Shown: positions 11,994-35,287 of the stretch, one piece after another
How the letters are laid out: the number at the start of each line of letters is the position of its first letter
Numbering within the stretch: position 1 is the first letter of the stretch
Assembly: GCA_001595915.1 (NCBI GenBank)
Contig: LSSG01000053.1
Coordinates: 3,416-67,415 of the forward strand
DNA length: 64,000 nucleotides
Source of the DNA: Thermoplasmatales archaeon SG8-52-3
GTDB lineage: Archaea > Thermoplasmatota > E2 > DHVEG-1
Direction of reading: 5' to 3'
Position numbers and translations under genes: made by a program
Notes under the pieces: generated by a model
The model's input: only the letters and a program-made list of their open reading frames with translations
What the model was told of the DNA's origin: nothing
Databases searched by the model: none

Positions 11994-13061
11994 ATGAAGA
12001 TTCCATGGTCAATTCCAAATATTCAAGATAAAGAAATAGAATCAATAAATAGAGTGCTAGATTCTGGATGGCTTTCAATGGGTAAAGAAGTAAAAAAATT
12101 TGAAGAAAAAGTTGCTTCTTATCTAAAAATAAAATATTCAATTTCAGTTAATAATGGTACATCTGCTTTAGATCTTGCTTTAAAGTGTTTAGATCTCAAT
12201 ACAAAAGATGAGATCATAATCCCTGCCTTAACCTATATTGCGACTGGAAATGTTGTTTTATATAACAATTGTATACCTGTATTTGTTGATATTGATAATA
12301 CTTTGAATATAGATACCACCCTAATTGAAGAAAAAATAACAAAAAAAACAAAGGCAATAATTAATATTGATCTAGGTGGAAATCCAACAAATTATAAAAA
12401 TTTATTAAAAATATCTGATGAAAATTCTTTACCTTTAATTGTTGATGGTGCACAATCTTTTGGTTCAGAATATCAAAATAAAAAATGTTGCACACATGGT
12501 CTAATAAATACAACCAGTTTTCATGCAGCAAAAATAATAACTACAGTTGAAGGAGGAATGATTTTTACTAACGATAAAAAAATAAATGATAAAGCAAATA
12601 TTTTAAGAAATCAAGGTGAAACATCAAAATATATACACAGCTATCTTGGTAACAATTATAGAATGACTGATTTAGCAGCTTCAATTGGGAATTCTCAGAT
12701 GGATAGGTTTGAAACTACTCTAGAAGAACGAATAAATAAAGCAAAATATTATAAACAAAATCTAAAAAATGTAGATTATCCTGAAGAATTACAAAACACT
12801 AAAAATTGTCATTTTTTCTTTTTAATTTTAGTTAAAAATAGAAATAAATTAAACAAATGCCTAAATAAAAATGGAATAGAAACACGAATAACTTATCCTT
12901 TACCGATAAATGAACAAACTATATTTAAAAAATATAGTAAACAAGATTATATTTCAGCAAAAAAATTTTCAAAAAAAGTAATATCATTACCTATTCATCA
13001 TAAACTAACAATAGACGAACAAGATTATATTATTAAGAAAATTAACAATTTTGATAGGTGA
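11994..13061 (+). CDS. DegT/DnrJ/EryC1/StrS-family PLP-dependent sugar aminotransferase
   Basis: NGTSALDLAL and SFHAAKIITTVEGG motifs. Confidence 0.85.
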   Translation: MKIPWSIPNIQDKEIESINRVLDSGWLSMGKEVKKFEEKVASYLKIKYSISVNNGTSALDLALKCLDLNTKDEIIIPALTYIATGNVVLYNNCIPVFVDIDNTLNIDTTLIEEKITKKTKAIINIDLGGNPTNYKNLLKISDENSLPLIVDGAQSFGSEYQNKKCCTHGLINTTSFHAAKIITTVEGGMIFTNDKKINDKANILRNQGETSKYIHSYLGNNYRMTDLAASIGNSQMDRFETTLEERINKAKYYKQNLKNVDYPEELQNTKNCHFFFLILVKNRNKLNKCLNKNGIETRITYPLPINEQTIFKKYSKQDYISAKKFSKKVISLPIHHKLTIDEQDYIIKKINNFDR

Positions 13062-13066
13062 TATAA

Positions 13067-13999
13067 ATTAATATATTAGTTACTGGAGGTGCTGGATATA
13101 TTGGTAATATATTAGTACCTGAATTATTAAAAAAGAAATATTATGTTAGAGTATTTGATAATTTAACGTATGGTATCGATGGTATTCTTCCTCATTTTAG
13201 TAATAATAATTTTGATTTTACCAAGGGAGATATAACAAACATTGTTGACATTAAAAAATCACTTGATGATATCGATTTTGTAATACATTTAGCAGCTATT
13301 GTTGGCTATCCAGCATGCAGAGCTAGACCCGATCTTGCACATAAGGTTAATTTTATTGGAACAAAAAATCTATTAAGTTATTGTAAAGTCCCATTTTTTT
13401 ATCCATCTACTGGCAGTAGTTATGGTAAAGTTGAAAAAATATGTACTGAAGAAACTCAATTAAAACCATTAACCGAATATGGTGAAACTAAAACTAATGG
13501 TGAAGAGATTGTAAAACAATATTCAGATTATGTTATATACCGTTTTTCAACAGGTTTTGGATTATCACCAAGACTTAGACTTGATCTTCTTGTTAATAAT
13601 TTCTTAATAAAAGCAATGCGCGAAAGGGAATTAATTGTGTATGAAAAAAATTATTGGAGATCTTTTATTCACGTCAAAGATATTTCTAGAAGTATTATTT
13701 TTGCTATTGAAAACTTTGAAAAAATGAATGGAGAAATATACAATGTAGGATCTGAAAAATTATGTCTAACAAAGGAAGATGTAGCCTTAAAAATTAAAAA
13801 TTATGTTGATTTTCATTTAAAATTTGCTGAATTTGGAAAAGACCCAGATAAAAGAAATTATAAGGTAAGTTTCAAAAAGATAAAATCATTGGGTTTTAAT
13901 ATAAAATTTGATTTAGATTATGGTATTAAAGAAATGATTAAGGCATTTCAATTTATTGAGTTAAAAGATGATTATTTTAATTATAAGGTTTTTAAATGA
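13067..13999 (+). CDS. NAD-dependent epimerase/dehydratase (extended SDR); apparent non-canonical AUU start
   Basis: The open frame encodes (I)NILVTGGAGYIGN...YGETK, with the Rossmann motif and YxxxK. There is no ATG/GTG/TTG until codon ~184. AGGTGA at 13056..13061 sits 5 nt upstream of ATT 13067. Confidence 0.7.
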   Translation: MNILVTGGAGYIGNILVPELLKKKYYVRVFDNLTYGIDGILPHFSNNNFDFTKGDITNIVDIKKSLDDIDFVIHLAAIVGYPACRARPDLAHKVNFIGTKNLLSYCKVPFFYPSTGSSYGKVEKICTEETQLKPLTEYGETKTNGEEIVKQYSDYVIYRFSTGFGLSPRLRLDLLVNNFLIKAMRERELIVYEKNYWRSFIHVKDISRSIIFAIENFEKMNGEIYNVGSEKLCLTKEDVALKIKNYVDFHLKFAEFGKDPDKRNYKVSFKKIKSLGFNIKFDLDYGIKEMIKAFQFIELKDDYFNYKVFK

Positions 14000-14650: not shown

Positions 14651-14845
14651 ATGAAAATAGAAGTTTCGAATTTAACTTATAATAAATTAAAAACTATAAA
14701 AGAAAATGAGTTTGAAGGATATGATTTTGATATGATGATAAAATATCTATTAACATTTTATAACCAGAATAAAAAAAATCATCAATTATTTAAAAAGATG
14801 GAAAAAGAAGTAGAAAATCTTATGAAATTGGCAAAGGGAACTTAA
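14651..14845 (+). CDS. Hypothetical 64-aa protein
   Basis: ORF preceded by GAGGATAAA-ATG. No Cys. Function unknown. Confidence 0.3.
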   Translation: MKIEVSNLTYNKLKTIKENEFEGYDFDMMIKYLLTFYNQNKKNHQLFKKMEKEVENLMKLAKGT

Positions 14846-14960
14846 ATTTAGAAAAGATATCTTTAAACTTATTTTCAGATTATTTAGGATTTTTTATATA
14901 TCAGTTGCTATTGTAAGATTTAAATATCCTTTATATTATTTATTTTAGGGAGGCTTTCAT

Positions 14961-16763
14961 CTGAAAATAAACATTTATTCTAAAGGATTATCTGTTTTTT
15001 TCATTCTTACAATTATTTCCCCTATAACTGTTAGTTATATTGATAAGGATATGATGATCAATGTAAACTCCAATGATAAAACTGAGGTTAATAATATAAT
15101 AGCCAATGGTTTTTTGAATTATTCTAAAGGTGCAGCAGACTGGCTAATAAATGAATCTATTGAAATAGGAGACGGGTATAAATGGCCTGATTCAGTTGGT
15201 AGTTCTTATTACTATACTGATCTATATTATGGTTCACCAGGTATTGTTACATTATTTTCAGAACTATATAAAATAACAGGTAAGGATGAATATTTTCAAT
15301 ATACGGTTGGAGGGACAGAATGGTTGATTGAAAAAGCTATTTCTGAAGCAGGTGGTTATAAATGGCCTGAGAAGGAAGATTTACCTTTGTATTATACTGG
15401 ATTATATGTAGGAGCTGCTGGAACCGGTGAATCATTTCTCAATCTATATAAAACCCTATCAGACACATTTTATCTAGAATATGCTTCAGGAGCTGCTAAT
15501 TGGTTATTGAGTGTTGCAGTATTTGAAAATCAAAATGAATGTAAATGGCCAAGCTCTCAATATGCTACCGACTATTGTACTGATATTATATATGGAGCAG
15601 CTGGTATCGGCTTATTTTTATTGCAAATGTATGATTTGACAAATAACATAGAATATCTAAATTACTCACGATATGCAGGAAACTGGTTAATTAATCAAGC
15701 AAAACCTTCAGGTAGTGGTTATAAATGGGAGGTATCAAACAATTGTCCATATATTTATACAGGTTTTTCACATGGTGCTGCTGGAATTGGATATTTTCTT
15801 GCTAAATTATTTGAACATACAAATAACTCACAATTTCTCGAATATGCAAAAGGTGCTGCCCAGTGGCTAATTGATATTGCAGTTACCGAATCAGGTGGTT
15901 GTAAATGGTGGTCTAAAGAAGGTGATACTCCAAGTTATGCTACAGGATGGTGTCATGGTCCTGCTGGAACATGTTTGTTATTTATGAAACTCTATCAAAT
16001 TACCTCTGAAAATATTTATCTAACTTATGCAGAAATGGGTAGCACATGGCTTATTAGTCTTGCCATTCCAAGCGAAGGAGGATACAAATGGCCACATTAT
16101 CAAGGATCCCCAAATTATGATACAACCATTTGTCATGGAGCAGCTGGAATTGGTGATTTTTTTCTAAGGATGTCTGATCTTACAAATGAAGGTTTTTATT
16201 ATGACTATGCTAAAGGTGCAGCAGAATGGTTAAAGAGTGTTGCCGATACTTCTGCTGGAGATTATCGTTGGGCAACTTTTGGTTCATATTATACAGGTTT
16301 TTCTACAGGTACATCTGGGATAGGGCTCTTTTTCTTAAGAATCTATAATCCACCAGACAAACCTAATCTAGTTTGTTCTGGTAACCTAAATTGGGTAAAT
16401 GTGAAACCCAATTCAAAAATTATAGGTTATTTTCAAGTCGAAAATATTGGTGACCCTAATTCATTATTGTCTTGGGAGATAATTGAACGGCCAGAATGGG
16501 GTAATTGGTCATTTACTCCAGATAGTGGAATTGATTTAATGGCTAATGAAAAAATAAATATTACTGTAGAGTTAATTGCTCCAAACGAAAAAGAAAAGGC
16601 GTATACAGGTAAAGTAATCCTAGTTAATAGTGAAGATTTAAATGATACTTGCAGCATTGATGTGTCACTTAGTACACCAAAAAATAGAGGTGTATATCAA
16701 CTTTATTTCATACGATTGCTTGAACGTTTTATAATGCTTGAAAGACTGCTGAATCTTATATAA
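14961..16763 (+). CDS. LanC-like (lanthionine-synthetase-C-like) seven-repeat alpha-toroid protein with predicted N-terminal signal/anchor and C-terminal beta-sandwich module
   Basis: Seven ~58-aa repeats (YxxAxGAAxWL...GGYKWP...YTGxxHGAAGIG). The LanC Zn/catalytic motifs are in canonical order: GFSHGAAG, GWCHGPAG, TICHGAAG. A first ATG lies at 15051. An in-frame hydrophobic leader (KINIYSKGLSVFFILTIISPI) begins at CTG 14961, 7 nt after GGGAGG. Confidence 0.7.
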   Translation: MKINIYSKGLSVFFILTIISPITVSYIDKDMMINVNSNDKTEVNNIIANGFLNYSKGAADWLINESIEIGDGYKWPDSVGSSYYYTDLYYGSPGIVTLFSELYKITGKDEYFQYTVGGTEWLIEKAISEAGGYKWPEKEDLPLYYTGLYVGAAGTGESFLNLYKTLSDTFYLEYASGAANWLLSVAVFENQNECKWPSSQYATDYCTDIIYGAAGIGLFLLQMYDLTNNIEYLNYSRYAGNWLINQAKPSGSGYKWEVSNNCPYIYTGFSHGAAGIGYFLAKLFEHTNNSQFLEYAKGAAQWLIDIAVTESGGCKWWSKEGDTPSYATGWCHGPAGTCLLFMKLYQITSENIYLTYAEMGSTWLISLAIPSEGGYKWPHYQGSPNYDTTICHGAAGIGDFFLRMSDLTNEGFYYDYAKGAAEWLKSVADTSAGDYRWATFGSYYTGFSTGTSGIGLFFLRIYNPPDKPNLVCSGNLNWVNVKPNSKIIGYFQVENIGDPNSLLSWEIIERPEWGNWSFTPDSGIDLMANEKINITVELIAPNEKEKAYTGKVILVNSEDLNDTCSIDVSLSTPKNRGVYQLYFIRLLERFIMLERLLNLI

Positions 16764-16870: not shown

Positions 16871-17875
16871 TTATAAAAATATTTTTCTTGGTTTTACAAT
16901 AGTGCACTCAGCACATACTGGTATTTTATCAAACCTTTTAGAGTGAATTAATTTTCTTATATTTTGATATTTTTCACTTCTCCAGATTTCTTTTATTGAA
17001 GAATCTTTTACATTTCCAAGAATTATTCTTTTAGAATAATCATTACAGCATAATATTACATCACCATTTGCTAAAATATTAAAAATTGAGAAAAGATGAT
17101 GACATCTATGAACTAAATCTTTTCCAAAATTATATAATAGATTTTGGACAAAATTTGGATAATAATTATTCATTGCTAACTCATTAAAATTTGCTAAATC
17201 TCCACTTCTACTATTAATTCTTGTGAAATCAATTGGAATGCCTCTATTTTTCCAATAATTTTCAAAATCATAAATTTCTTTTAAATTTTTATTTTGAATT
17301 ACATAACCAACAGATATCCTTCCAGAATAATTAGAGTTTAATACACATTCAATATTTTCTAAAAGTTTCTTAAAATTTAGTTGTTTTCTAATTTCTTCAA
17401 AAGTTTCTCTTGTATATGCATCAATACTAAAATGAATCTCATCAACTTTTGAATTTTCAAGTTCTTTGATTTTGTTCTTGTTAAAAAGAGTTCCATTTGT
17501 GACAAGTGCTGTTGATAAATTATTATTTGTTAATTTTTTTGCAAGTTCTAATTTTTTAAAAATATCTTTATCAAGAAGAGGTTCATTTTGAAGATATAAC
17601 CATAACCAAATAAAATTACTATTTTCATCAGCAATTTCCTTTAAAATCTTGTTGTATAACTTATCAGACATTTTTTTTGTTTTTGAGTATTTCTGATAGC
17701 TCCTAGGACACATAATACATTTTCCATTACATGCATCAATTGTTTGAATTTGAAAAACTGATGGAAATTGATACACTTTCTTTGTAATATTATATTGAAA
17801 AATCCTACCTAATAATATAAAGAGATGCATATATTTTTTCAAGTATATATTAAATTTATAGTCTAATTGACTCAT
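16871..17875 (-). CDS. Radical SAM/SPASM-domain protein
   Basis: CNGKCIMC motif. C-terminal SPASM-like CCNDYS...GNVKDSSIKEIW...CAEC. Confidence 0.7.
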   Translation of the reverse strand: MSQLDYKFNIYLKKYMHLFILLGRIFQYNITKKVYQFPSVFQIQTIDACNGKCIMCPRSYQKYSKTKKMSDKLYNKILKEIADENSNFIWLWLYLQNEPLLDKDIFKKLELAKKLTNNNLSTALVTNGTLFNKNKIKELENSKVDEIHFSIDAYTRETFEEIRKQLNFKKLLENIECVLNSNYSGRISVGYVIQNKNLKEIYDFENYWKNRGIPIDFTRINSRSGDLANFNELAMNNYYPNFVQNLLYNFGKDLVHRCHHLFSIFNILANGDVILCCNDYSKRIILGNVKDSSIKEIWRSEKYQNIRKLIHSKRFDKIPVCAECTIVKPRKIFL

Positions 17876-17986
17876 AATTTCCGTAATAAAATAATTAGTT
17901 TGTTATAGACTCAATAAATTATTTATTTATTAATTAATTCATTTATTGAAGTAATATGCAATAGTTCTAAAGATAAAAGCAGATTA

Positions 17987-18059
17987 TGGGCCCGCCGAGA
18001 TTTGAACTCGGGTTACTACCACCCCAAGGTAGAAGGATGCCAAGCTACCCCACGGGCCC
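17987..18059 (-). tRNA. tRNA-Pro (anticodon GGG)
   Basis: Cloverleaf folded by hand: 7-bp acceptor GGGCCCG/CGGGCCC, T-loop TTCAAAT, anticodon loop TTGGGGT. GC-rich in an AT-rich background. No encoded CCA. Confidence 0.85.
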
Positions 18060-18187
18060 AGATTTTTATAAGCATAATTATCCTTCTAAAAAAACTTTCT
18101 TAAATTATAGTGTATTAATTGATTGCTAATTTATAATACTTTATTTGGAAAGACTTAATATTATACTCATAATAAAGATTATGCAAT

Positions 18188-24586: not shown

Positions 24587-26584
24587 ATGACTAATCGAGA
24601 GGATTTCAAATCTTTTATTCCATCTGAAAAAATTATTCCTGAGCTAACTTTTAAGGCTATAATTATTGGAATTTTTCTAGCAATAATACTCGGCGCTGCA
24701 AATGCATACCTTGGATTATATGCAGGAATGACGGTTTCAGCAATTATCCCCGGTGCAGTAATGGCCCTGGCACTTTTAAGACCTTTTAAAGGAACAATTC
24801 TTGAAGTAAATTTAGCTACAATGGGAGCCTCTGCTGGTGAATGTATTGCTGCAGGAATAATTTTTACAATACCAGCATTAATATTACTTGGTGTTTGGAC
24901 AGAAATCAACTATTTAGAAACCACCTTAATTGCTTTGTTAGGTGGTTTATTAGGCGTTTTATGGATGGTTCCTTTAAGAAGGGCTCTTGTTGTTAAAACA
25001 GATCTTCCATTTCCAGAGGGAGTGGCAGTAGCAGCTGTTTTGACAACTACAGTTGGTGGTGAAACAACTGATGAAAAAAAAGCAAGTGGTGTTACTGGAA
25101 TTTGGTTAGGTGTTGGTGCTTTAGTAGCTGGTCTTTTTAAATTTTGTGAATTATCATTAAATATTTTTAGGGGTACAATTGAACATATTTCAAGTATTGG
25201 GAAGTATAAAATTGGTGGAAATATAAATCAAGGTTGGTTATATGGTGGAGTTACTATATCCCCTGCTCTTCTTGGTGTTGGATGGATAATAGGAACAAGA
25301 ATTGCATCATACGTTCTTGTAGGAGGGCTATTAGGTTGGGTAATTATTGCACCAATTGTTGCCTTAGCAAATGGGCTTCCATTACCTGCTCCTGAGTTTG
25401 CAGAATTAGGTGTTGAACTAGGTGGATTTTATACAATATGGGCAAACCAAGTAAGATTCATTGGAGTCGGTACAATGCTAATAGGAGGTTTGTGGGCTAT
25501 TTGGGCAATAAGAATGAATTTAGCAGGTAGCATTAAAGAAGCAATTATTGGTATTAAAGGAGGACAAGTTAAAAGCAAAAAAAGAACAGATAAAGATGCA
25601 AGTTTCAAATTAATTTTTATTTTTATTGTTCTTATGACAATACCTGTTTTTCTATTATATCTATGGTTATCAGATATGTTTGGAATCTCCTTGATAATGG
25701 CAATAATAACAATATTTTTTGCATTTATTGCAAGTGCCCTTGCAGGTTATCTTACTGGACTGGTTGGTTCTTCAAACATGCCAATATCTGGAGTTACAGT
25801 TGCAGTTTTATTAATTGTTAGTTTAATTATGCTTGGTTTTGGTGTAACTGGGGCGGGAGGTATGGCAATTGTTATATTTATTTCAGCAGTTATTGCGGTT
25901 GGAGGATCTATTTCTGGAGACCTTCTACAATCTATGGCTTGTGGGCAAATGCTAGGTGCGACACCTAGAAATTTACAAATTTCAATGACATTTGGTGTAC
26001 TAGCAATTTCTGGAGTGGTTGGTATTGTTATCGGATTATTACATAAAGCATTCAGAATAGGTAGTACTAAACTAGTAGCACCTCAAGCAGGCTTAATGGC
26101 TGGAGTTGTTAAAGGTGTACTTGGTGGAGAGATGCTTTGGCCTTTTGTTTTAGCTGGAATGATACTTGCTTGTGTTTTGATTCTAATTGATCTTCCTGTT
26201 TTACCTGTTGCAATAGGAATTTATTTACCATTCACATTATCAATTCCAATATTTACTGGCGGAGTGATTAGATATTTAACCGACAGACAATTTAAAAAGA
26301 AATTTGGTACAGCACAGGAAGAAGAAGTAAGTGATTGGGAACTAGCTATTAAAAATACAGATATAAAACCAAAAGAAAAAGCAATTAGAACAGGTCTACT
26401 TTTTACAGCGGGTCTTGTTGCTGGAGAAGCTCTGACTGGTGTAATTATAGCAATACTTGTTGTAATGGGAATAAATCTTGCCTTTTATGAAAGTGCTCCT
26501 TGGTTACCAGGTTTAGTTGTTTGGATATATATAGCAATATTATTGGCTTATATACCTATTAGAGAAATTATTAATAAAAATTAA
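24587..26584 (+). CDS. OPT-family oligopeptide transporter
   Basis: GAANAYLGLYAGMTVSAIIPGAV N-terminal signature. About 16 TM segments, 665 aa. Confidence 0.7.
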   Translation: MTNREDFKSFIPSEKIIPELTFKAIIIGIFLAIILGAANAYLGLYAGMTVSAIIPGAVMALALLRPFKGTILEVNLATMGASAGECIAAGIIFTIPALILLGVWTEINYLETTLIALLGGLLGVLWMVPLRRALVVKTDLPFPEGVAVAAVLTTTVGGETTDEKKASGVTGIWLGVGALVAGLFKFCELSLNIFRGTIEHISSIGKYKIGGNINQGWLYGGVTISPALLGVGWIIGTRIASYVLVGGLLGWVIIAPIVALANGLPLPAPEFAELGVELGGFYTIWANQVRFIGVGTMLIGGLWAIWAIRMNLAGSIKEAIIGIKGGQVKSKKRTDKDASFKLIFIFIVLMTIPVFLLYLWLSDMFGISLIMAIITIFFAFIASALAGYLTGLVGSSNMPISGVTVAVLLIVSLIMLGFGVTGAGGMAIVIFISAVIAVGGSISGDLLQSMACGQMLGATPRNLQISMTFGVLAISGVVGIVIGLLHKAFRIGSTKLVAPQAGLMAGVVKGVLGGEMLWPFVLAGMILACVLILIDLPVLPVAIGIYLPFTLSIPIFTGGVIRYLTDRQFKKKFGTAQEEEVSDWELAIKNTDIKPKEKAIRTGLLFTAGLVAGEALTGVIIAILVVMGINLAFYESAPWLPGLVVWIYIAILLAYIPIREIINKN

Positions 26585-34150: not shown

Positions 34151-35287
34151 TCATTTGCCAATAAAATAACCAATAATATGATTTAGTTTTGGAAATTTCT
34201 CTATAAGTCTTTGAATCAATGAATTGTATGTTATTTTTGATCTTGGTGTTTTAAGATAAACATCAATTTCACAGAAGTTTGATGTATCATCTGAATTAAT
34301 GATTTTTATTTTTCCAATAAATTCCTCAGTTTTATTTGTAGGTGCCGTAACATTTACAGTAATCGTTACACATTCTCCTTCTTGTAAACCTTGACCGCTA
34401 TCTGGTTCAATTTCAAAAACTGCTCCTGGCCAATTTGGAGCTGATTCAAACTGCCAATTTAATATTGTGCCATTGTCTCCACAGTTACATATTTCAAATG
34501 TATCTGAAACTGTAGTTCCAGGTGGTACATCTTCCCAAGAAAGACTACCATCGCAACAGATAGCTGAATCACCTTCAGAAACCATAAAATCATCTACCAT
34601 TAAAAACCAAGAGTCATATGACACACAGTGAATTCCAATATATATGCTCTGGTCATCATAGGAGTCTAGATTATATGAATATTTTGTCCATTCTGTTGGT
34701 GGTTCAATATATGGTGCAGATGATATTATTGTAAAGCTTGTAGGATCTGTATCTGTTGTAGATACTCCAACTTCAATTCTTTCAATGTTATATTGATCTG
34801 AATAAGATTTCGCCCAAAAAGAAACAGTACCAAAATTATTTGGTTCTAATTGAGGAGTAATCAACCAATCATCATTTTGTAACGTATTTTGAACAGCCCA
34901 ACAAACTGTATATTTATCACCTGTATGAGCTAATAATTCAGGATCTTCTTGTGGTGGATCACATGCCAACGGATTGAAAATTAGAAATGCATATGCTTCA
35001 TTTTCATGTGTAAAATTAAATGCTGAATGACCCCATGTAAGTTCTCCATCTACATCAATATTAGTCCATGGTTGAAAATCTATTGAAAAATCTTCATATG
35101 CTTCGAAGCTATCCTCAAATAAAGCATTAGTTTGCAATATTTTTGGTTTATTAATGTTTGAGATAATATTTTTTGTTATTGATGAAATTTCAATTGCTTC
35201 TTTATTATCAGCAATAACAGCAGATGTTGAAAAAACCAATATAAAAGATATCAACAATACTGTATTTGCTTTTATAAAATTTTTCAT
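34151..35287 (-). CDS. Secreted protein: choice-of-anchor-J-like domain + C-terminal module shared with the LanC-like protein
   Basis: Signal peptide. WTNIDVDGE...DDWLITPQLEP...VSFWAK...ERIEVGVST resembles choice-of-anchor J. The last ~120 aa align with the tail of 14961..16763. Confidence 0.45.
   Translation of the reverse strand: MKNFIKANTVLLISFILVFSTSAVIADNKEAIEISSITKNIISNINKPKILQTNALFEDSFEAYEDFSIDFQPWTNIDVDGELTWGHSAFNFTHENEAYAFLIFNPLACDPPQEDPELLAHTGDKYTVCWAVQNTLQNDDWLITPQLEPNNFGTVSFWAKSYSDQYNIERIEVGVSTTDTDPTSFTIISSAPYIEPPTEWTKYSYNLDSYDDQSIYIGIHCVSYDSWFLMVDDFMVSEGDSAICCDGSLSWEDVPPGTTVSDTFEICNCGDNGTILNWQFESAPNWPGAVFEIEPDSGQGLQEGECVTITVNVTAPTNKTEEFIGKIKIINSDDTSNFCEIDVYLKTPRSKITYNSLIQRLIEKFPKLNHIIGYFIGK

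Follow-up and report, generated by a model that had tools for sequence, protein, structure and literature searches.

A predicted exported LanC-like protein with a conserved, proposed CTG start codon in a Thermoplasmatales archaeon

We describe a gene for a LanC-like protein on the plus strand of a 64,000-nucleotide stretch of DNA (hereafter the window, meaning the whole of that stretch) from the Thermoplasmatales archaeon SG8-52-3 (GCA_001595915.1, contig LSSG01000053.1, positions 3,416-67,415 of the forward strand), an MBG-D (Marine Benthic Group D)/Thermoprofundales assembly recovered from White Oak River sediment, in its sulfate-reducing zone (PMC6461988). We consider it probable that the product is an exported, CUG-initiated, stand-alone zinc enzyme of the LanC/LanCL type, which would probably be tethered to the cell surface and act on extracellular peptides. 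The identical protein in the databases (AYK22_00095 of Thermoplasmatales archaeon SG8-52-3) is labelled hypothetical and begins at the second methionine of the frame (the 569-aa form of NCBI).

We propose that translation would begin at a conserved CUG at 14961, with a strong Shine-Dalgarno (SD) motif 7 nt upstream, on a short-leader mRNA transcribed from a TATA promoter that is likewise conserved. Roughly the first 25 residues would form a Sec-type signal peptide with a positively charged n-region, directing the remainder of the protein outward; cleavage would fall between TVS and Y, and if uncleaved the segment would act as an N-in signal anchor. The exported body would be a seven-repeat toroid with the zinc ligands Cys331, Cys391 and His392, the proton donor His271 and the enolate-stabilizing His332, capable of zinc-activated addition of a thiol to an electrophile of the dehydroalanine (Dha) or dehydrobutyrine (Dhb) type, or of the reverse, retro-Michael reaction. 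It would act on peptides or proteins outside the cell, not on the precursor of a lanthipeptide in the cytoplasm, and a C-terminal beta-sandwich followed by a TPxNR amphipathic tail, shared with other secreted proteins, would probably hold it at the cell surface. In this model we infer the use of the CTG, export, cleavage, zinc binding, the chemistry, the thiol donor, the substrate and the surface tethering; we observe the fold, the motifs, the conserved start context, the family's export signals and the lack of lanthipeptide genes among the neighbors scanned.

The LanC-like toroid and its predicted active site

The following features make up the catalytic domain, with residues numbered from the proposed CTG start:

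15102..16358, +: LanC-like alpha/alpha toroid of seven 60-61-aa repeats, each bearing a G-x-[K/R]-W beta-hairpin, and 14 helices in all (PF05147, AlphaFold2, Foldseek)
15582..15584, +: Asp208 (TDIIYGAAG), candidate counterpart of NisC Asp141, in a conserved column
15771..15773, +: His271 (GFSHGAAG), predicted active-site acid, aligned to LanCL1 His219
15951..15956, +: Cys331-His332 (GWCHGPAG), predicted zinc ligand and enolate-stabilizing residue, matching LanCL1 Cys276-His277
16131..16136, +: Cys391-His392 (TICHGAAG), predicted zinc ligands, matching the ICHG motif of LanCL2

The LanC-like identity claimed in the original prediction holds: the Pfam model PF05147 (LANC_like) matches with E=4.6e-41 and 141 bits (cutoff 23.2), spanning profile positions 5-342 of 350 and, in the 604-aa product read from 14949 onward, residues 90-470. 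The seven tandem repeats proposed there were likewise recovered, with anchors (G-x-[K/R]-W) at residues 72, 132, 193, 253, 313, 374 and 434; their length, given earlier as ~58 aa, is corrected by this spacing to 60-61 aa. An AlphaFold2 model built from a 92-sequence alignment has a mean predicted local distance difference test (pLDDT) score of 90.4, with 96-99 in the toroid, and shows 14 helices arranged as seven hairpins, each with a short beta-hairpin, followed by a beta-sandwich (470-571) and a lower-confidence helical tail. Structural modelling thus returned the expected LanC-type toroid, and the best Foldseek matches in the PDB are of the same type (MadC, LanCL2, GCR2, CuvL, LanCL1, ThurKC, LicM2 and NisC), six-repeat glycoside-hydrolase and epimerase toroids ranking lower.

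The three motifs GFSHGAAG, GWCHGPAG and TICHGAAG occur in the predicted order, and all are covered by the matches to LanCL2 and LanCL1 in a phmmer search of PDB sequences. In these alignments His271 corresponds to LanCL1 His219, Cys331-His332 to Cys276-His277, and Cys391-His392 to the LanCL2 ICHG motif, which is the counterpart of LanCL1 Cys322-His323; equivalences with NisC were routed via LanCL1 and PMC9934072. Zinc in LanCL1 is bound by Cys276, Cys322 and His323, while His219 (NisC His212) protonates the enolate and His277 (NisC Tyr285) stabilizes it (PMC9934072). As His332 matches LanCL1 His277, the site is LanCL/ProcM-like rather than NisC-like at this position. Hence, the Cys2His site and catalytic histidine of the original prediction are upheld by the profile, the LanCL1/LanCL2 alignment and the structure prediction, whereas its likeness to NisC in detail is not, given His332 where NisC has Tyr285. 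Asp208 is a candidate equivalent of NisC Asp141, judged by the motif pattern D-x3-G-x2-G. Judged by these alignments, the full LanCL1-type catalytic set is present.

Conservation was counted in 17 close homologues and, for the wider family, in 92 aligned homologues. His271, Cys331, His332, Cys391 and His392 are invariant in the close family (64-76% identity), where Asp208 is near-invariant (at least 90%). Cys331 and Cys391-His392 directly precede predicted helices (at 334 and 394) of repeats 5 and 6. The LanC domain evolves at a ratio of nonsynonymous to synonymous substitution rates (dN/dS) of 0.15-0.21 at dS 0.6-0.9, indicating purifying selection. We also considered that the gene might be a pseudogene that has lost its ATG start, a reading that we rejected on account of this strong purifying selection and the conserved context of the CTG.

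Across the wider family the full catalytic set occurs in 56 of the 92 sequences, with the pattern D-H-C-H-C-C in 34 and D-H-C-H-C-H, as in the window protein, in 14; the former have a three-Cys site in which the third motif reads Cys-Cys instead of Cys-His. The column of His271 holds His in 67/92 and that of Asp208 holds Asp in 59/92. The set is lost in the other 36, so that the family, with about a third of its members devoid of the Cys/His set, is not uniformly catalytic. A signal-like N-terminus, defined as a hydrophobic 12-mer with a Kyte-Doolittle (KD) value of at least 2.0 beginning in the first 31 residues, was found in 40 of the 56 members with the full set and, when applied to the 120 best homologues, in 86, many of the others being truncated gene calls. 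On inspection, some N-termini are of the twin-arginine kind (SRRDVLRAG.., SRRDLLRSG..) or lipobox-like, and homologues are found fused to type IX secretion system (T9SS) sorting domains, dockerin, PKD and Ig-like domains. The window protein thus appears to belong to a large, uncharacterized family of exported LanC-like proteins in archaea and bacteria.

The exported toroid could instead act on glycans, as a hydrolase, lyase or epimerase in the manner of GH76, GH88, GH127 or AGE-type enzymes, or be a non-catalytic binder in which the Cys/His cluster is structural or serves some other chemistry. The window protein does match the Pfam model for GH88 (28.2 bits against a cutoff of 26.6), though over profile positions 38-153 of 352 only, and its GH127 and GH76 matches lie below the cutoffs; a close homologue, P0021, matches the GH127 model (30.5 bits against 24.9, no single stretch being significant), and GH127 enzymes use a Cys-rich zinc site. 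The LanC-like family profile also matches GH76 mannanases (E 1e-16 to 1e-10) and AGE-type epimerases, both of which Foldseek lists. In the same direction point the label 'rhamnogalacturonyl hydrolase YesR' given by JGI to several homologues, the dockerin and T9SS fusions typical of carbohydrate-active enzymes, the glycan-biosynthesis genes adjoining the window gene and the third of the family that lacks the catalytic set. Nevertheless, the LanC profile match is far stronger than that of any glycoside hydrolase (141 against 28 bits), the top matches by sequence as well as by structure are without exception LanC-type, each of the five LanCL1 catalytic residues is found where the repeats would place it and does not vary within the close family, and there are seven repeats as in LanC, whereas toroids of glycoside hydrolases and AGE have six. 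We read the partial GH88, GH127 and GH76 matches as probable similarity shared among toroid repeats; LanC-type chemistry has much the better support, and we regard a toroid that is glycan-active or non-catalytic as unlikely.

The proposed CTG start, the predicted signal peptide and the C-terminal module

Outside the toroid, the gene comprises the following elements:

14911..14926, +: B recognition element (BRE)-like TTGTAAGA and TATA box TTTAAATA (TATA 14919-14926), candidate archaeal promoter, near-invariant across 7 orthologous loci
14948..14953, +: Shine-Dalgarno GGGAGG, 7 nt before the CTG
14961..14963, +: predicted CTG start codon, conserved in 8 sequences from 7 lineages
14961..15035, +: predicted signal peptide, residues 1-25, with n-region (M)KINIYSK, h-region GLSVFFILTIISPI and c-region TVS, and putative cleavage between TVS and Y
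15036..15101, +: short variable linker, residues 26-47, poorly conserved, holding the annotated ATGs 15051 and 15054
16359..16673, +: beta-sandwich (Ig-like) domain, residues 467-571 (AlphaFold2 strands 470-571, pLDDT ~90-97)
16674..16763, +: tail TP[KR]N[RK] with an amphipathic helix (..RLLERF..LERLL) and the stop codon, a candidate sorting or anchoring signal conserved in orthologues

The frame is open from 14949, right after a TAG at 14946-14948, to the stop codon at 16761-16763 (+). Its first ATG is at 15051, giving an ATG-initiated ORF of 570 aa (15051..16763, +), and initiation at the CTG would give a precursor of 600 residues. Direct reading of the sequence bears out two earlier statements, namely that the frame upstream of ATG 15051 is open and encodes the N-terminus LKINIYSKGLSVFFILTIISPITVSY, and that GGGAGG (14948-14953) and CTG (14961-14963) are separated by exactly 7 nt.

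The case for the CTG comes from orthologous DNA of seven lineages (the window, L001 with L005, L002, L006, L018, L019 and L020; 8 sequences). The codon matching window 14961 is CTG in 8/8 sequences and 7/7 lineages, each with a G-rich SD-like motif 6-7 nt 5' of it (GGGAGG in the window, L001, L002, L018 and L020, GAGGT in L006 and GGGGGT in L019). In three lineages (the window, L006 and L020) an in-frame stop lies directly before or within the SD, and ATG, GTG and TTG are all absent between that stop and the hydrophobic segment; hence, no canonical start is usable there. In L001, L002, L018 and L019 the sole upstream TTG sits 5' of the SD, and in L020 the equivalent TTG is directly followed by TAA. 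CTG is the rarest leucine codon in window genes (42/1685 Leu codons, 2.5%), yet it is kept at dS 0.45-1.0, which argues for selection on the codon itself. GGGAGG is not by itself rare, with nine occurrences in the window against 6.3 expected, and the SD argument therefore rests on the conservation of a G-rich SD together with CTG across the seven lineages; SD motifs at similar spacing precede other genes in the window. Gene-caller starts are inconsistent, being placed at the TTG 5' of the SD, at an internal Met within the signal peptide (MTVGY...) or, in the window, at 15051/15054, an outcome expected if the true start is non-canonical.

Upstream, the block ATTGTAA(C/G)ATTTA(A/T)ATAT is almost invariant at the seven orthologous loci despite a coding-region dS of 0.45-1.0. 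From its agreement with the archaeal TATA consensus, 14911-14926 probably acts as the promoter, and the position of the TATA box ~21-25 nt upstream of the SD implies a short mRNA leader. A scan for sigma-70 promoters and terminators around the gene gave no more matches than shuffled sequence did; these models are bacterial and irrelevant to an archaeal promoter.

On inspection, the peptide encoded after the CTG has the features of a Sec-type signal, with n-region charges K2 and K8 and a 14-residue h-region (9-22); residues 10-24 are the most hydrophobic 15-aa stretch of the whole protein (KD 2.33). The -3/-1 positions carry TVS before Y in the window protein and a T-x-[G/A/S] motif in all orthologues, and cleavage is predicted at this point; as positive charges precede the h-region, the catalytic domain should face outward whether or not the signal is cleaved. 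The leader frame is conserved and hydrophobic across orthologues, and residues 1-42 are disordered in the AlphaFold2 model (pLDDT <50). Sister clades have, at the same alignment position, an ATG after an SD and textbook signal peptides (e.g. MKKVIVIGIVVLLIVV.., MQKCLIRKALAAGIIVLFIF.. and MDINPSLFYKILVIGIIYLF..). The proposal of a CTG start with a signal-peptide-like N-terminus is thereby backed from two sides, by the CTG and G-rich motif of seven lineages and by the ATG-led signal peptides of paralogues. Export of the CTG-initiated form is further suggested by the family-wide export signals and the shared C-terminal module.

The linker (26-47) contains no Met or other start codon conserved among orthologues, and in its place paralogues carry an insert of ~35 aa, IIIVDDEGDGDYTSI..DTIEVYSG. 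In the ATG-start paralogues P0003, P0005, P0010, P0011, P0012 and P0019 the insert IIIVDDEGDGDYTSIKEAVNHANPSDTIEVYSG stands between signal peptide and LanC domain (alignment columns 45-100), and the window protein keeps a mere vestige of it (..NDKTEVNNIIANG). This insert presumably recalls the N-terminal cap motif of beta-helix proteins of the NosD/pectate-lyase type.

A cytoplasmic, stand-alone LanC-like protein translated from ATG 15051 or 15054, preceded by an untranslated leader that is hydrophobic by chance, would agree with the 569-aa NCBI annotation and with ATG as the sole canonical start in the frame. To our knowledge, all characterized LanC and LanCL enzymes are cytoplasmic, and CUG is a poor initiator where tested. 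Conversely, no start codon is conserved among orthologues at the annotated ATG position, where they carry ACG-GTG, GAT-GTA or TTG-TTG; 15051 has no preceding SD; the upstream frame is open and hydrophobic in 7/7 lineages and aligned with the ATG-led signal peptides of paralogues; the promoter and SD are placed for the CTG; and the C-terminal module and the domain fusions of the family are extracellular in kind. Hence, we hold cytoplasmic translation from the ATG to be quite unlikely.

The gene may not be alone in its mode of initiation. The ORF at 13067..13999 (+) encodes a complete NAD-dependent epimerase/dehydratase (Pfam E=3e-39, matched from residue 3, with the Rossmann motif at residues 3-13), and yet ATG, GTG and TTG are all missing from codons 1-183. 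It could start only at ATT 13067 or ATA 13073, respectively 5 and 11 nt after an AGGTGA (region 13056-13999) that shares nucleotides with the stop codon of the DegT aminotransferase gene before it, and standard ORF calling yields only a 127-aa fragment (13616..13999). Taken with the CTG of the LanC-like gene, near-cognate, SD-driven initiation appears to occur twice inside 2 kb. In the literature searched, whose coverage was incomplete, we found nothing relevant on CTG starts in archaea.

As was proposed earlier, the last ~130 residues are a module of their own, in which a helical tail comes after the beta-sandwich (470-571); neither part has a match among the Pfam and NCBIfam models. The module shares 35% identity (E=7e-28) with the C-terminal part of a second window protein. 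This 378-aa product, encoded at 34151..35287 (-), starts at an ATG preceded by an SD and has a canonical signal peptide (MKNFIKANTVLLISFILVFSTSAVIA), an unrelated passenger domain without a Pfam match, and an amphipathic TPRSK tail. A tail of the form TP[RK]x[RK] plus an amphipathic stretch (..ERFPNAFPILRQLL..) also ends several signal-peptide proteins beside homologues in related genomes. Such proteins adjoining a LanC-like homologue end ..TPRTR...LPNAFPILRQLIELI (L006 9925-11091), ..MPRNK...ERFPNAFQLIRQLLGF (L012 7672-9051) and ..IPRTR...LERFIILERLLDLIK (L003 7672-9441). The recurrence of the same tail on neighboring signal-peptide proteins in related Thermoplasmatales suggests a family-wide C-terminal signal of secreted proteins, and in Thermoprofundales the module looks to be a portable signal for sorting or for anchoring at the surface. 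The tail is too weakly hydrophobic to span a membrane (KD at most 1.13); a membrane-spanning C-terminal anchor or archaeosortase-type signal was accordingly rejected, the tail being amphipathic rather than hydrophobic.

Besides the glycoside-hydrolase matches and the partial loss of the catalytic set, several points weigh against an exported thioether enzyme. CUG initiation in this organism is argued from comparison, and in systems with measurements CUG initiates weakly. The signal peptide was called from hydropathy, charge, the -3/-1 rule and homology, and the 25-codon leader, whose dN/dS is 0.45-0.77 whenever the window is one of the pair, shows weak constraint only, with the pair L001 and L002 giving a value above 1. 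Zinc binding by Cys331, Cys391 and His392 is predicted from aligned residues. Finally, the thiol donor and the electrophile outside the cell are hypothetical.

Relation to known LanC systems and the genomic neighborhood

LanCL1 and LanCL2, eukaryotic proteins of the glutathione S-transferase type (PDB 3E6U, 8CZK, 6WQ1), resemble the window protein in being stand-alone toroids without a dehydratase partner and in sharing the same catalytic set, including a WCHG motif in which His332 equals LanCL1 His277; they are its best single-sequence PDB matches and among its top Foldseek matches. The LanCL reaction is an intermolecular addition of thiols to Dha/Dhb in proteins (PMC9934072), and by analogy LanCL-type thiol addition would be the most plausible chemistry for a stand-alone enzyme. 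However, LanCL proteins are cytosolic and use glutathione, whereas the window protein has a predicted signal peptide, a C-terminal beta-sandwich and a tail, is only ~16-20% identical to them and bears a G-x-K-W beta-hairpin in every repeat. Its predicted extracellular location argues against a eukaryotic-type, glutathione-dependent LanCL.

The class I cyclases NisC and MadC (PDB 2G0D/2G02, 8BYK) share the fold, the Cys-Cys-His zinc site and the catalytic histidine (NisC His212), and MadC is the top Foldseek match (E=1.2e-13). In contrast to the window protein, NisC has Tyr285 in place of His332 and class I cyclases are cytoplasmic and adjoin LanB and LanA genes; by sequence, the profile match to NisC (E=7e-9) is weaker than those to LanL and LanCL. 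The best profile matches are the cyclase regions of LanL and LanM (NCBIfam LanL E=2.7e-44, LanM 7.4e-44), and CuvL, a class IV LanL (PDB 8CAR), matches with E=1.9e-26. The NCBIfam LanL, LanM and LanKC matches are partial, covering the C-terminal cyclase part only, at 101.6-151.7 bits against cutoffs of 304-650; the window protein differs from LanL and LanM in having no kinase, lyase or dehydratase domain (151.7 bits against a full-length cutoff of 650, 149.8 against 304). With no kinase or DUF4135 domain by Pfam it falls outside the class II, III and IV synthetases. In the wider exported family the third motif occurs as CHG and as CCG, two forms that are also known from LanM enzymes, the ProcM type being the three-Cys one.

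In their survey Walker et al. 2020 counted as 'unclassified' 3052 of 12,705 PF05147 proteins in RefSeq that lack a LanB, LanM or kinase context, and excluded this set from analysis; their text is silent on signal peptides and secretion, and their archaeal cases occur only within class II clusters (PMC7268733). The window protein would fall in this unclassified bin. No description of exported or secreted LanC-like proteins, or of archaeal LanC-like proteins, was found in the literature that we searched, an absence of evidence only, as the coverage was incomplete.

A Pfam scan covered seven genes upstream and eight downstream. The upstream genes encode a sulfotransferase, a DUF3419 protein, a glycosyltransferase, a radical SAM protein, the DegT aminotransferase, the epimerase and a GNAT acetyltransferase; those downstream encode a radical SAM/SPASM protein (16871..17875, -; convergent, 107 nt downstream of the LanC-like gene), PQ-loop, SIS-domain and TIM-barrel proteins, a Hef-like helicase, a histidine kinase and an OPT peptide transporter. 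The scan found no LanB (PF04738/PF14028), LanM dehydratase or protein kinase among these genes, which sets the gene apart from class I LanC genes, defined by a LanB and a LanA precursor within about seven genes; LanB is also absent from the homologue loci examined. A small nearby ORF (14651..14845, 64 aa) has no Cys, no systematic search for precursor peptides having been made. Beyond the radical SAM gene lies a tRNA-Pro(GGG) (17986-18060, -), and an Rfam scan of the window gave no family at threshold. The transporter gene, at 24587-26584 (+), is separated from the LanC-like gene by ~8 kb; its product, an oligopeptide transporter of the OPT family (Pfam E=1.1e-73), would fit the peptide-scavenging lifestyle proposed for MBG-D archaea.

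The orthologues have a partly syntenic setting that differs from that of the window, with a PurP-like gene, a secreted C1 peptidase with a lectin-like domain, an OTCase and an MFS transporter, and more distant members adjoin M14 carboxypeptidases, PKD or laminin-G proteins, or a secreted CotH kinase. Across 12 homologue loci we found no conserved gene partner, M14, C1 peptidase, PKD, CotH and radical SAM genes each occurring in one or two lineages; the sources of homologue DNA included ENA, JGI and GTDB. At one locus (L013 5947-12134, in the Bacteroidales metagenome-assembled genome JAIOYV010000028.1) a LanC-like T9SS gene overlaps the start of a gene for a 1524-aa T9SS-secreted protein with CotH kinase, lamin-tail and beta-helix domains. 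A secreted CotH kinase beside a LanC-like enzyme recalls the kinase-plus-cyclase logic of classes III and IV, in a pairing found once.

[quoted passage not shown] The convergent gene belongs to a class common in RiPP maturation, and the CotH overlap might be taken in the same sense. Against this, the radical SAM gene is unlinked to the LanC-like gene at every other locus examined, the CotH linkage is a single case, the window neighborhood offers no LanB, LanM or kinase gene and only a Cys-free small ORF, and a conserved partner is wanting. We consider a RiPP cyclase very unlikely, and retain the stand-alone exported enzyme as our preferred reading.

The LanC-like gene (window 14900-16700) has a G+C content of 31-37%, against 19-28% in adjacent genes and 27.6% in the window. 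Among the homologues, those of Bacteroidota that carry T9SS domains reach 65% identity. The raised G+C and these close homologues are compatible with gene transfer between domains, and the G+C difference could alternatively stem from a Gly/Ala/Trp-rich composition.

A probable exported branch of the LanC superfamily

The fold and catalytic site of the LanC superfamily are already known. New are the export context, consistent over a large clade of archaea and bacteria, the stand-alone design with a portable C-terminal surface module, and the predicted CTG start fixed in one Thermoprofundales clade. It is possible, though we would not count on it, that these proteins, which occur in bacteria and in sediment archaea (Thermoprofundales, Asgard), represent a widespread, unrecognized class of LanC enzymes that work extracellularly, make or break thioether (lanthionine-type) links outside the cell and have a fixed CUG start in one archaeal clade. 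A conserved exported branch with an intact site would put zinc-dependent thioether chemistry outside the cell. Characterized LanC-type enzymes act intracellularly, on a lanthipeptide precursor or with glutathione, and the exported branch, whose signals are Sec-like and apparently also of the Tat and lipoprotein kinds, and which uses T9SS sorting domains as well as dockerin modules, would depart from both. It also offers a testable entry into the large 'unclassified' share of LanC-like proteins set aside by genome mining.

If this is true, the extracellular roles of such enzymes could include the cross-linking of cell-surface proteins. They could also open sulfur-cross-linked or lanthionine-containing detrital peptides for secreted peptidases in sulfidic sediment. 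The MBG-D/Thermoprofundales lineage is known for the degradation of extracellular protein in sediments, and a role in processing detrital peptides would hence be ecologically relevant. Moreover, the SD-plus-CUG start of the LanC-like gene and the epimerase that could start only at AUU or AUA would constitute cases of non-canonical initiation in an uncultured archaeon. As gene callers strip the signal peptides from genes with such starts, predictions of the secretomes of these organisms may be biased.

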